Assembly: GCA_043747875.1 (NCBI GenBank)
Contig: JAYTOI010000037.1
Span: 30 to 64,029 of the forward strand
DNA length: 64,000 nt
Source: Pseudomonadota bacterium
GTDB taxonomy: Bacteria; Pseudomonadota; Gammaproteobacteria; Steroidobacterales; Steroidobacteraceae
Direction of reading: 5' to 3'
Shown here: positions 28,260 to 29,822 of the stretch, in pieces
Layout: each line of letters begins with the position of its first letter
How positions within the stretch are numbered: the first letter of the stretch is position 1
Position numbers and translations under genes: made by a program
The notes under the pieces: model-generated
Database searches by the model: none
The model's input: only the letters and a program-made list of their open reading frames with translations
What the model was told of the DNA's origin: nothing

Positions 28260-28880
28260 TCACCGCAGGCTTTCTCGCTCGCCGGCGAGCAGCCGTTCGA
28301 GCTTGCGCCGGGCATGGAACATGCGGGTCTTCACGGTACCGAGCGGGCAATGGACGATTGCCGCGATCTGCGGATAGTCGAAGTCCTGGAAATATGACAG
28401 CTCGATCACTGCGCGATGCTCAGCCGACAGCGCGCGCATGGCGGTGCCGATGCGCGCGTTGCGCTCGAGTTGCAGCAACTCCCCTTCGGGCGCGGCGCTC
28501 GTCGGCTCAGTGTCCGGGTCCGCGTGCACCGGATCGTCGAGGCGCTTGCGCGCCTTCAATGCCTTGCGATATCCGATCGCGAAGATCCACGTCGAGACCT
28601 TGGAGTGGCCGTTGTAGGTGTGCGCGCGGTGCCACACGGCGAGCATGGTGTCGTTGATCAGCTCCTCGGTGAGCTGCGGCCGATGCGTGAGGCGCTGGAG
28701 AAACCGCGCGAGCCGCGGGCGATAGATGCGATAGAGCGTCTCGAACGCGCGGACACTGCCGCGCGCGGCGTCGGCCACGAGCGCGGCGTGCGCGACTTCG
28801 CCCGGTGACGCCGTGCGCATGGTCGCGTTCAGCCGCGACACGCCCGCGGACCACGCCGTGTTGACTTCGATGCGTTCCAT
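28260..28880 (-). CDS. ECF-type RNA polymerase sigma factor
   Basis: Region 2 (FETLYRIYRPRLARFL...DTMLAVW) and region 4 (AVIELSYFQDFDYPQIAAIVHCPLGTVKTRMFHARRKL). Confidence 0.85.
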   Translation of the reverse strand: MERIEVNTAWSAGVSRLNATMRTASPGEVAHAALVADAARGSVRAFETLYRIYRPRLARFLQRLTHRPQLTEELINDTMLAVWHRAHTYNGHSKVSTWIFAIGYRKALKARKRLDDPVHADPDTEPTSAAPEGELLQLERNARIGTAMRALSAEHRAVIELSYFQDFDYPQIAAIVHCPLGTVKTRMFHARRKLERLLAGERESLR

Positions 28881-28987
28881 GCATGCGAAAAAGTGAACCG
28901 AACTGGACTCGGAGGGAATATACCCCAGGAGTCACCGCACCGGGGTCAACTAACTATTCGAAAGTGCGGTGAATTTGTGTTCGCCGC

Positions 28988-29500
28988 ATGGGAGGGGGCG
29001 TCGTGAGCCGATTCACAGCGCGACTCGAGGTTGTCTCGAATGTCGCAATCATTGTCCTGGCGGTGATCGTCGCGGCCGTTGCGCTGCGCAATCATGTATT
29101 TCCTCCGCAAGCGATTGCGGAGCTGCCGCAGGGAACGAAGCTCGCGCTGCCCGACGTGCAGTGGAGCGAGCGCCCGCACACGTTAGTCATGGTTTTGCGT
29201 AAGGATTGCCAATTTTGTTCCGCGAGCGCCGGGTTCTATCGGCGCCTGCTCGAGGAAACGACGCGACTCGGTGTTCCCGTGATTGCCGCGCTGCCGGATG
29301 AGGTCGCCGCCTCACAGGAATATCTGCAGGAGCTCGGCATCGCCGTCACCGCCGTCCGCAGCGTCTCGCTGCGCTCGATCGGCGTGGGCGCCACGCCGAC
29401 GCTCGTACTCGTCGACGCGCACGGTGCCGTCGCGCACACCTGGGTCGGGCAATTGCCCGAAGCGGGCGAGGCGGAGGTGATTCGCAGGCTGCGACTCTGA
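28988..29500 (+). CDS. Membrane-anchored TlpA/thioredoxin-like redoxin
   Basis: N-terminal TM helix, CQFC active-site-like motif, ATPTLVLVD thioredoxin-fold cis-Pro region. Confidence 0.65.
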   Translation: MGGGVVSRFTARLEVVSNVAIIVLAVIVAAVALRNHVFPPQAIAELPQGTKLALPDVQWSERPHTLVMVLRKDCQFCSASAGFYRRLLEETTRLGVPVIAALPDEVAASQEYLQELGIAVTAVRSVSLRSIGVGATPTLVLVDAHGAVAHTWVGQLPEAGEAEVIRRLRL

Positions 29501-29558
29501 CGCCCGCGAGTTGCGCGTCGGTCCGATTGTCAGGGGCCAAACTCAACAGGAGATCTCG

Positions 29559-29771
29559 ATGAAGAAACTGATCGTGAAACTGGCGTCCGTGCTCACGCTC
29601 GCGGCTGCCGCGAGCGTCATGAGCATCGCGCCCGCGAGCGGCGGGTCGCCGGCCTGCTATTCGGCCTGCGGCAGCCAGACCAGCGCCTGCCACGCGTGGT
29701 GCACGTGGAACCAGGCCTGCCATGCGCAGTGCACCGCGCAGTTCAACGCGTGCATGGCGGCGTGCGGCTGA
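29559..29771 (+). CDS. Secreted 70-aa cysteine-rich peptide with four A-C-x3-C motifs
   Basis: AGGAG Shine-Dalgarno. Signal peptide MKKLIVKLASVLTLAAAASVMSIAPASG, then ACYSAC-x6-ACHAWC-x5-ACHAQC-x6-ACMAAC. Confidence 0.6.
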   Translation: MKKLIVKLASVLTLAAAASVMSIAPASGGSPACYSACGSQTSACHAWCTWNQACHAQCTAQFNACMAACG

Positions 29772-29822
29772 GCGGATAAAGTGTGGTTCGGGTGGCGGCG
29801 ATAGTTAGGGAGGAGTCGCCGC
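29743..29822 (+). repeat. attC-like remnant overlapping the 3' end of the Cys-rich peptide gene
   Basis: gttcaac..ctgagcggataaagtg..ggcggcgatagttaggg shares tgag.ggataaagtg and the (a)gttagg end with the array consensus. The L' arm is missing. Confidence 0.35.

Follow-up and report, generated by a model that had tools for sequence, protein, structure and literature searches.

Knottins, hairpinins, venom peptides and other disulfide-rich mini-proteins are valued as ultra-stable scaffolds and, to our knowledge, are regarded as essentially eukaryotic. Among bacterial thioredoxin-fold proteins, TlpA/ResA-type members are usually reductants, the proline of a CxPC active site is typical of the reductive TlpA, ResA and CcmG, and TlpA acts as the reductant for the Cu-site cysteines of ScoI and CoxB. 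In the sublancin operon, the oxidoreductases BdbA and BdbB are encoded beside their Cys-containing peptide substrate. PedC is likewise a thioredoxin-fold enzyme encoded beside a pediocin-like bacteriocin, and ensures that the correct disulfides are formed (PMC4919988). Plant alpha-hairpinins and vicilin-buried peptides adopt a helix-loop-helix in which disulfides join the Cx3C units of opposite helices (PMC11591084). The solved structure of toxin B-IV from Cerebratulus lacteus is a helical hairpin held by four disulfides; the toxin is strongly basic and requires Arg17 and Arg25 for activity (PMC6410017).

Here we describe a locus within a 64,000-nt stretch of DNA (the window) in which genes for a membrane-anchored redoxin and a cysteine-rich peptide lie divergent from an ECF sigma factor gene. 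In the reading we favor, to which we assign a probability of roughly 60%, the redoxin and peptide genes form a two-gene operon that encodes a disulfide-rich mini-protein destined for export together with a periplasmic thiol-disulfide oxidoreductase dedicated to it, the operon being placed in this lineage under the divergent orphan ECF sigma. The arrangement follows the same logic as PedC/BrcD, BdbA/BdbB and TrbB (F transfer), i.e., a thioredoxin-fold enzyme gene beside a gene for a Cys-containing secreted substrate. It differs from the PedC/BdbA-type systems in that the hosts are diderm, immunity and transport genes are missing, and the peptide carries a Sec signal peptide instead of relying on an ABC transporter and a double-glycine leader.

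The eight-cysteine peptide and its predicted fold

The pre-peptide gene (29559-29771, plus strand) encodes 70 aa (MKKLIVKL...ACMAACG) and is preceded by a Shine-Dalgarno sequence, AGGAG, at 29548-29552, 6 nt 5' of the ATG. Judged by eye, the N-terminus (approximately aa 1-28/29) resembles a signal peptide, which leaves a mature part of ~41 aa with the four units ACYSAC, ACHAWC, ACHAQC and ACMAAC in the framework C-x3-C-x6-C-x3-C-x5-C-x3-C-x6-C-x3-C and without a single Lys, Arg, Asp or Glu. The original prediction, made from the window sequence before this work, had described the ORF with its Shine-Dalgarno sequence, signal peptide and four Cys units, and these are as it stated. The 8-Cys pattern occurs once across all six frames of the window, and none of 200 shuffles contained it. 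Among 34 diverse relatives no Cys of the eight varies; the gene has a dN/dS of 0.13-0.21 and is under purifying selection.

Pfam returned no family for the peptide, Csp included, even at E<=1, and neither Pfam nor NCBIfam holds a family for it or for six other partner peptides (see below), in agreement with the earlier remark that no described family has this repeat. For the C-terminal domains of P0012 and P0016, two relatives with several domains, neither Pfam nor the PDB offered a match, and these domains therefore give no functional hint. The peptide is not read as a lipoprotein because no lipobox precedes C33. Heme attachment was considered and rejected on sequence inspection because the motif is C-H-x-x-C and not CxxCH; the neighborhood tables examined contain no cytochrome-maturation genes.

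AlphaFold2 (AF2) placed helices at residues 31-46 and 52-69 of the full-length peptide, and at residues 2-18 and 23-40 of the mature part modelled alone (pLDDT 93.7); the mature peptide is thus predicted to fold as a helix-loop-helix. Cx3C...Cx3C, the class motif of the alpha-hairpinin type, occurs twice, nested, a likeness that denotes structural-class membership only and not homology, with the inter-helix disulfides being putative. Alpha-hairpinins (C-x3-C-xn-C-x3-C) have the same stapled helix-loop-helix plan, but they are known from plants only, contain two disulfides and not four, are usually basic, and are cut from larger precursors with no dedicated oxidoreductase gene associated.

A Foldseek search with the full-length model gave copper storage protein Csp3 (6q58) as its sole match (E=9.9, probability 0.06). 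The signal-peptide helix made this result uninformative, and the search was therefore repeated with the mature part, for which the top and only match was neurotoxin B-IV (1VIB; TM 0.66, rmsd 3.2 Å, E=5.9). B-IV was also the top match of a PDB profile search, with all eight Cys aligned (E=0.25); neither match is significant, and both are dominated by Cys. Weak profile matches also included vicilin peptide 7lve and the QCR6 hinge protein. The B-IV framework, C-x3-C-x6-C-x2-C-x10-C-x3-C-x6-C-x3-C, nearly equals that of the window peptide, whose central loop is five residues shorter. In contrast to the toxin, an animal venom peptide, the window peptide is bacterial and Sec-exported, and its mature part lacks Arg and Lys, so that the basic residues required in B-IV are absent. 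Since the match statistics are not significant, we do not claim homology with B-IV, and convergence is likely.

The original prediction had left the nature of the peptide between a disulfide-stapled helical peptide and a small metal-binding protein analogous to the Csp proteins. The AF2 model and the B-IV-like Cys framework favor the stapled helix, and the analogy with Cu(I) binding in Csp has become weak: Csp1 and Csp3 share Cx3C-type Cys spacing along helices with the window peptide, but they are four-helix bundles of ~120 aa, whereas two helices are predicted here and no Csp family match was obtained. Metal binding stays a rival because a His pair, His45 and His55, is invariant in the close peptide family; the pair recurs in many relatives (including P0012, P0013, P0015, P0021, P0025 and P0033). 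The peptide would then be a periplasmic mini-protein that holds Cu(I), Zn or Cd in a Csp- or metallothionein-like thiolate cluster, possibly as a dimer making a four-helix bundle, with the redoxin keeping its thiols reduced and the sigma factor answering metal or envelope stress. The Cys stripe produced by helical Cx3C units and the Csp3 match, poor as its E value is, would suit such a protein; against it, His is not conserved across the wider 8-Cys family while the Cys spacing stays rigid, and the framework fits that of a solved four-disulfide toxin. Together with the redoxin evidence given below, we regard metal binding as an unlikely function, with perhaps one chance in several. A purely structural role would leave the conserved His pair (C-H...C-H) of the subfamily unexplained.

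The redoxin and its family of cysteine-rich partners

The gene upstream of the peptide gene (29003-29500, plus strand) encodes a 165-aa thioredoxin-fold oxidoreductase with an N-terminal membrane anchor (or signal peptide), a CQFC active site and a TPT cis-Pro loop; the membrane anchor, the thioredoxin fold and the CQFC motif had been proposed. Its start is likely the GTG at 29003, which gives a length that matches the homologues; an alternative ATG lies at 28988. Alignment A3 shows C74-Q-F-C77, T136-P137-T138 and the hydrophobic segment VSNVAIIVLAVIVAAVAL as invariant or conserved, and a juxtamembrane motif, R-[LI]-E-x-x-[ST]-N-V-A-I, is conserved as well. The protein scored just below the Pfam cut-offs for Redoxin (25.8 bits, cut-off 26.6) and AhpC-TSA (23.3 bits, cut-off 26) and far below those of the DsbE (TIGR00385; 17.4 bits, cut-off 123) and ResA (PRK03147; 12.4 bits, cut-off 170) models; its nearest solved structure is ResA 4nmu (E=8e-4). 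By these scores it is a distant member only of the TlpA/ResA/DsbE superfamily, sharing with TlpA, ResA and CcmG (DsbE) the N-terminal anchor, the extracytoplasmic thioredoxin fold, the CxxC and the cis-Pro loop, but differing in its C[QH]FC active site and in its context, i.e., a Cys-rich mini-protein partner and no cytochrome c maturation or Sco/Cox genes. The PedC/BrcD model (TIGR01295) was not among its listed NCBIfam matches; one distant homologue reached 13.3 bits against that model (equivalog cut-off 120), and distant homologues matched TrbB and PedC_BrcD weakly at 13-21 bits (cut-offs 120-132). Because these scores are far under the cut-offs, the window redoxin is placed outside both families.

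Adjacency of redoxin and peptide is kept across 30% to 84% peptide identity. Acidobacterial redoxin homologues with 35-45% identity also precede peptides with four Cx3C units (L012, L034, L057, L060, L092 and L095). Of 51 non-redundant redoxin loci that offer room of 350 nt or more, 39 have an adjacent ORF with a signal peptide and at least six Cys, while elsewhere in the 289 kb only eight other such ORFs were found, mostly extra tandem copies. The partner peptides fall into at least six Cys frameworks, including a knottin-like C-C-CC-C-C, and one knottin-like partner weakly matches spider Toxin_12 (E=0.002). The redoxins cluster by the class of their partner peptide: the nearest neighbor belongs to the same class in 28 of 32 cases, and identity is 56% within as opposed to 38% between classes. 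The suggestion that the redoxin is dedicated to its peptide is thereby strengthened. Stand-alone peptides also exist, since P0026 and P0027 have no adjacent redoxin.

The redoxin family comprises at least 258 homologous clusters and is found mainly in Acidobacteriota. A scan of GTDB genomes with the peptide profile returned one species, a Steroidobacteraceae MAG, and a word-indexed search with a broad peptide alignment added few members, on short contigs. Among the listed results of literature searches there was no description of the redoxin-peptide module, and these pairs apparently constitute a large, undescribed set in soil bacteria.

The redoxin also bears on the metal-binding alternative. 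Its nearest solved relative, ResA, is a reductant, and the action of TlpA on the Cu-site cysteines of ScoI and CoxB offers a precedent for a redoxin that serves metal ligands. Against this, the CxPC proline is replaced in C[QH]FC, the same redoxin family also has partners whose frameworks, knottin-like ones among them, are typical of disulfide-rich peptides, and no metal-resistance or copper genes were found in the neighborhoods examined. The reductant habit of TlpA/ResA-type relatives would also suit a metal-binding thiol peptide.

The divergent sigma gene, the promoter-like motif and the 3' hairpin

On the minus strand, divergent from the redoxin and peptide genes, a monocistronic gene (28260-28880) encodes an ECF (group 4) sigma-70 factor of 206 aa with the Pfam domains Sigma70_r2 (45 bits) and Sigma70_r4_2 (52 bits). 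It scored 82.2 bits against NCBIfam TIGR02937 (cut-off 42.9); no subgroup equivalog was above its cut-off, the best being PRK12515 (118 versus 236). No anti-sigma gene adjoins it in the window or in any homologous locus examined, and the earlier description of a divergent ECF sigma without a neighboring anti-sigma gene thus agrees with both the domain searches and the homologous loci. Its downstream neighbor is an acyltransferase gene in the window, a convergent glyoxalase gene in L001 and L004, and a TIR protein gene in L006; no conserved small ORF lies there.

The three genes recur together, as a test of co-occurrence had called for, in 17 fetched loci (some of them redundant) with differing flanks, and the sigma homologue sits divergently in all sigma-type loci. 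The flanks include nirBD downstream in L001 and L004 and, unrelated to these, genes for a TIR protein and a 559-aa protein in L006-L008. A functional link of the trio to nirBD was rejected because L006-type loci lack nirBD.

The intergenic region contains an ECF-type promoter-like motif, TGAACC-N16-GAATAT (28894-28921, plus strand), ~80 nt 5' of the redoxin start and directed at the operon. It is unique within the window, with 0 occurrences expected from shuffles, and is present as one copy at the same position in all 17 sigma-bearing loci and in none of 74 other loci; alignment A4 shows no variation in its blocks TGAACCGA and GGAATATACC. The motif is a putative promoter, and because it is conserved in every sigma-bearing locus and absent elsewhere, ECF control of the redoxin-peptide operon, which had been raised as a possibility, is possible. 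The GAATAT of the -10 part differs from the commonest ECF -10 (CGT-like). Further downstream, a 10-nt block, ACTAACTATT (28949-28958, plus strand), lies in the presumed 5' UTR or operator region and is invariant in eight aligned loci, while the adjoining sequence varies. A search for sigma-70-type promoters found none, and no conserved GAAC-N16-GAAT that could serve as an autoregulatory promoter for the sigma gene was found on the minus strand of the intergenic region. A term search of the Casas-Pastor 2021 ECF classification turned up no group whose description places a redoxin or a Cys-rich peptide in its gene context.

The missing anti-sigma gene and the divergent layout, strictly conserved in the 17 sigma-bearing loci, could also mean that the redoxin-peptide pair provides the orphan sigma with sensory or regulatory input, as an unconventional anti-sigma or redox-sensing module, and is not its output. 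We consider this improbable: the cytoplasmic part of the redoxin (~10-15 residues) is too small for an anti-sigma domain, sigma-less homologues carry the conserved N-terminal motif of the redoxin to the same extent, the majority of redoxin-peptide pairs (~60 loci) have varied neighbors and no sigma homologue, and the conserved ECF-type motif marks the pair as a target.

Downstream of the peptide gene, at 29792-29853 (plus strand), a GC-rich hairpin with arms GTGGCGGCG...CGCCGCCGT and a loop holding GATAGTTAGG precedes a CGGC/GCCG stem and TTTT. The element is kept in seven loci, including ones with different downstream genes; it shows no covariation and has a fold z-score of -0.9. We take it as the probable transcription terminator of the operon. 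An 8-nt inverted repeat (CTAACTAT/ATAGTTAG, chance expectation roughly 0.3) flanks the operon, and its 3' copy varies; we do not read it as the end of a mobile element.

The original prediction saw in the 3' hairpin region an attC-like remnant and suggested acquisition of the peptide gene as an integron cassette, whose attC would since have decayed. The window does contain a large cassette array (454-11744) and, near 37.4 kb, orphan attC copies, and a 15-mer, TGAGCGGATAAAGTG, resembles the attC repeats of the window in their core, a match this good being expected 0.1 times per window. The best match of an attC covariance model in the 27-31 kb interval also falls here, at 29734-29849, but its 6.8 bits (E~0.5 per 4 kb) are non-significant, and the model found nothing at the equivalent position of homologous loci. 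An nhmmer profile of 20 attC copies gave nothing at 29500-29850 even at E<=100, whereas true copies score 78-108 bits with it. The 'agttagg' that had been cited for the assignment sits in the hairpin loop, and the hairpin is conserved along with the gene in loci of other flanks. In addition, the trio is syntenic in relatives and lies among housekeeping genes (DeaD, HrpA, nirB), with ~16 kb between it and the array, and the peptide is paired with a redoxin in Acidobacteriota as well. The attC assignment is accordingly not supported, and a cassette origin appears highly improbable.

Proposed function and significance

Under the favored reading, a dedicated oxidoreductase acting on an exported disulfide-rich peptide, some signal would activate the ECF sigma, which would direct RNA polymerase to TGAACC-N16-GAATAT. 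The redoxin and peptide genes, separated by a 58-nt gap and sharing the 3' terminator hairpin, would be co-transcribed; the pre-peptide would be exported by Sec and its signal peptide cleaved. The mature peptide would fold into two antiparallel helices, each with its four Cys at i, i+4, i+11 and i+15 in one stripe, and with the stripes facing each other the helices could be joined by ladder-like disulfides (C1-C8, C2-C7, C3-C6 and C4-C5). The membrane-tethered CQFC protein would work on the emerging peptide, most likely as an isomerase or proof-reader against wrong disulfides between consecutive Cys of a Cx3C unit, which it would prevent or resolve, or else as a direct oxidant. The resulting mini-protein would be uncharged and very stable, and it may act as a ligand, an inhibitor or an antagonistic peptide, either in the periplasm or extracellularly. 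An extracellular role is uncertain because no outer-membrane export, immunity or processing genes adjoin the operon.

A wider proposal, which we hold tentatively and at slightly less than even odds, is that the pairs represent a widespread, undescribed bacterial system for venom- or defense-like mini-proteins, mainly in Acidobacteriota, in which membrane-anchored C[QH]FC foldases of the thioredoxin fold have co-diversified with interchangeable exported cargo. That cargo would comprise helical hairpins with four disulfides, C-C-CC-C-C peptides of the knottin-like kind, double knottins and further types, bioactive as antagonistic, inhibitory or signalling peptides, and the Steroidobacteraceae-like branch would have been wired to an ECF sigma that responds to an envelope or extracellular cue.

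A bacterial family of disulfide-rich peptides thus appears to arrive with its own folding enzyme. If confirmed, it would bring a ribosomal peptide class into the biology of soil bacteria, here Acidobacteriota and a gammaproteobacterial group of the Steroidobacteraceae-like kind, both difficult to culture. It would also provide foldases paired with their substrates, for use in making multi-disulfide peptides recombinantly, and a simple, testable ECF regulon consisting of one sigma, one promoter and two genes. Hundreds of proteins annotated as "hypothetical", "peroxiredoxin" or "redoxin family" would gain a concrete functional context.

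The eight-cysteine peptide and its predicted fold

The peptide gene (29559-29771, plus strand) encodes 70 aa and lies 58 nt 3' of the redoxin gene, with AGGAG ahead of it. Judged by eye, its N-terminus resembles a signal peptide. The mature peptide of approximately 41 aa, SPACYSACGSQTSACHAWCTWNQACHAQCTAQFNACMAACG, has zero charged residues, is rich in Ala, Ser, Thr, Gln, Asn and aromatic residues, and carries eight Cys in the framework C-x3-C-x6-C-x3-C-x5-C-x3-C-x6-C-x3-C (four C-x3-C units, 4xCx3C), a pattern found once in the window and in 0 of 200 shuffled sequences. All eight Cys, together with H45 and H55, are retained in ten close homologues (59-84% identity), and diverged pairs give dN/dS values of 0.13-0.21. 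When 1.8 billion representatives were searched exhaustively with a profile, 52 proteins were detected at E≤1e-3, mostly of about 70 aa with a signal peptide; across the 34 that were aligned, no columns other than the eight Cys are invariant and length varies in the central loop only. Judged from the sequences, the gene is genuine and its product defines a family. No model of the 4xCx3C domain was found in Pfam or NCBIfam. The unit also occurs in 2-4 tandem copies, joined by Pro/Thr-rich linkers, in the N-terminal part of larger secreted proteins (P0012, 420 aa; P0016, 734 aa; P0018, P0021 and P0030); relatives of their C-terminal domains were found in neither Pfam nor PDB.

Within each half of the peptide the four Cys are spaced i, i+4, i+11 and i+15, and because of this spacing they would form one stripe along an alpha-helix. 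AlphaFold2 predicted helices at residues 31-46 and 52-69 of the full-length peptide (pLDDT 84-89 there) and a helix-loop-helix for the mature peptide alone, modelled with no alignment (mean pLDDT 93.7), in line with the helical peptide of the original prediction. When every PDB sequence was searched by profile, B-IV, the neurotoxin of Cerebratulus lacteus (1VIB), ranked first, its eight Cys all in register (E=0.25), and 1VIB was also the sole Foldseek match to the mature model (E=5.9, TM 0.66, rmsd 3.2 Å); neither match is significant and homology is therefore not claimed. B-IV is a solved helical hairpin with four disulfide cross-links (PMC6410017) and its Cys framework is nearly identical, so such a framework is experimentally known to give this fold. 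Weak profile matches in PDB also include the QCR6 hinge protein and, likewise a disulfide-stapled helical hairpin, a vicilin-buried peptide, and the plant alpha-hairpinins are a two-disulfide version (PMC11591084); the fold class is already known from eukaryotes. Being uncharged, the window peptide is unlike B-IV and the cationic antimicrobial peptides.

The redoxin family and its cargo peptides

The redoxin gene (plus strand, divergent from the sigma gene) encodes 165 aa from GTG 29003, a start preceded by GGGAGGGGG and favoured by homologues over ATG 28988. At its N-terminus the protein has a hydrophobic anchor; its active site is CQFC and its cis-Pro loop TPT. Its scores fall slightly below the thresholds of the Pfam Redoxin and AhpC-TSA models and far below those of the DsbE and ResA models; the nearest solved structure is ResA (E=8e-4), and databases label the redoxin 'hypothetical', 'peroxiredoxin' or 'redoxin family protein'. 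A juxtamembrane motif, R-[LI]-E-x-x-[ST]-N-V-A-I, is conserved family-wide. The reductive enzymes TlpA, ResA and CcmG carry the proline of CxPC, and DsbC and DsbG have an aromatic residue before the second active-site Cys. Because the C[QH]FC site lacks this proline and shares the aromatic residue, the redoxin leans, by analogy, towards an isomerase or oxidase.

A redoxin-profile scan of metagenomes found 77 loci, and the family comprises at least 258 protein-database clusters, the named ones mostly from Acidobacteriota (Blastocatellia, Terriglobales, Pyrinomonadaceae). In the distant loci no homologue of sigma is seen and the neighbouring genes differ, among them TonB-type receptors, ToxR-like regulators with TPR or kinase domains, MacB-type permeases, recA and a TrwC relaxase. 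Of the 51 non-redundant loci that leave 350 nt or more of room, 39 carry, immediately 3' of the redoxin gene and on its strand, a small ORF with a signal peptide and six or more Cys; just eight other such ORFs were found in 289 kb, mostly additional tandem copies in the same clusters. These cargos are strikingly diverse and fall into the 4xCx3C hairpin type (L012, L034, L057, L060, L092, L095), an inhibitor-cystine-knot-like type (C-x6-C-x5-8-CC-x4-C-x8-C), 12-Cys doubles of that framework, a C-x3-C-x8-C-x3-C-x-C-x8-C type, a Trp-rich type and a CC-x-C type. Knottin-like cargos (...CPP...CCPGLVC..ASTRAFC) of acidobacterial redoxins lie within L023-L095, for instance at L056 1204-1491, L070 1286-1570, L072 899-1123 and L063 2165-2437; one such cargo matches spider Toxin_12 weakly (E=0.002, below threshold). 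To our knowledge, no bacterial knottin-like peptide with a foldase partner has been described.

Double-knottin-like peptides with 12 Cys are present in L076, L077, L080 and L064, and either tandem peptide genes or an additional redoxin gene behind the first peptide among L045, L070, L071, L073, L075, L080, L067 and L079; these doubles and repeated genes suggest that the redoxin-peptide module duplicates and diversifies locally. Many cargos (for example L063, L067, L070, L072, L076, L077, L080) share the leader M.LLRILRNLAVL.IL.V..L..TPRP ahead of mature parts with unrelated Cys frameworks, a pattern that recalls the conotoxin superfamilies. On the Terriglobales-like contig of L093/L094 (1482-5786) a redoxin and a 14-Cys peptide adjoin a TrwC-type relaxase and ParA, and on the basis of these neighbours some pairs at least are carried on mobile elements.

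Redoxin sequences group by the class of their cargo: for 28 of 32 the nearest neighbour belongs to the same class, identity averages 56% within classes versus 38% between them, and acidobacterial hairpin-class redoxins cluster with the window clade, as would be expected of a specific enzyme-substrate pair. The core of the system is the redoxin-peptide pair, much wider than the sigma-bearing trio. The original observation holds up except for the attC element, and its interpretation is largely correct except for the cassette origin; it was too narrow, the family-wide pairing being the more interesting result. Metal binding by the peptide would fit the stripes of Cx3C units, the fact that two His are conserved, an enzyme like ResA/TlpA and a non-significant structural match to the copper storage protein Csp3, but we consider it improbable, since two helices are predicted, no Csp family matched, B-IV offers a disulfide precedent, sister redoxins have knottin-like cargos and no metal genes lie close by. 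The disulfide-linked hairpin is preferred.

A dedicated oxidoreductase gene beside its substrate is known for BdbB and TrbB. The same arrangement, with a peptide substrate, is known for PedC (PMC4919988). This logic and the fold class are known already; the module itself has no matching family model, and no published description of it appeared among the literature results listed.

The sigma factor, its putative promoter and the integron array

All three genes are present as originally described. The sigma gene (28260-28880, minus strand) encodes Sigma70_r2 and Sigma70_r4_2 domains and scores 82 bits against NCBIfam TIGR02937 (cut-off 42.9), with all subgroup models of that search below their own thresholds. 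Its approximately 45 residues ahead of region 2 (28746-28880) are variable, with 18 codons deleted in L001, and are unlikely to be a conserved regulatory domain. As noted earlier, no anti-sigma gene was found beside it.

An alignment of eight intergenic regions revealed the invariant blocks TGAACCGA, GGAATATACC and ACTAACTATT amid varying surroundings. TGAACC-N16-GAATAT is laid out like an ECF promoter (a -35 element containing AAC and a 16-nt spacer) and is oriented towards the redoxin gene; it occurs once in the window (expected 0), exactly once per locus in 17 of 17 sigma-bearing loci and in 0 of 74 other loci. This distribution is good circumstantial evidence that the operon would be driven by sigma; no motif copy for sigma autoregulation was found. 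An 8-nt inverted repeat surrounds the operon, CTAACTAT in the 5' intergenic region (28949-28958, invariant in eight loci) and ATAGTTAG in the 3' hairpin loop (29801-29808, variable), plausibly a chance match (expectation roughly 0.3).

The trio recurs in two settings: with nirBD downstream, like the window (L001, L002, L004), and between unrelated flanks, a TIR protein and a 559-aa protein (L006-L008 and others). The only match among 185,579 GTDB species genomes was one Steroidobacteraceae MAG, which makes that group the probable source of the window. That the pair acts as a sensor for sigma is unlikely, since the cytoplasmic part of the redoxin is nearly nil and the majority of redoxin-peptide pairs have no sigma.

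The window also contains a cassette array (454-11744; also 11284-11316) with about 22 attC sites, each some 100 nt long and spaced 370-920 nt apart, with the consensus GCCTAAC...GTGAGGGATAAAGTGCCAAG...CGCTCAGCTCAACCGTTAGGC. One full and one partial orphan copy lie about 26 kb away (37424-37527 and 37565-37605). Past the array the window has no integrase gene; the first gene there encodes a DeaD helicase (12798-14681). This large array and the orphan copies near 37.4 kb could favour the proposed cassette origin of the peptide gene, but that origin is not supported: an attC profile and covariance model gave nothing significant at 29.7-29.85 kb, homologous loci have no attC match at the equivalent place, and the surrounding genes are housekeeping. 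The stretch taken for attC is a 3' hairpin conserved together with the gene, probably the operon terminator.

Proposed role of the redoxin-peptide pair

In the mechanism we favour, the ECF sigma would transcribe the operon, the peptide would be exported via Sec and processed, and its two Cys stripes would be linked through four ladder disulfides while the membrane-tethered redoxin works on it as it emerges. A general oxidant could wrongly pair neighbouring Cys inside one Cx3C unit, a consecutive error that would be avoided if the peptide had its own isomerase or proof-reader, or an oxidant dedicated to it. The reuse of 4xCx3C as an N-terminal repeat in larger secreted proteins suggests that the peptide has a binding function, and the diversity of cargo across the family suggests that its members are bioactive or antagonistic peptides.
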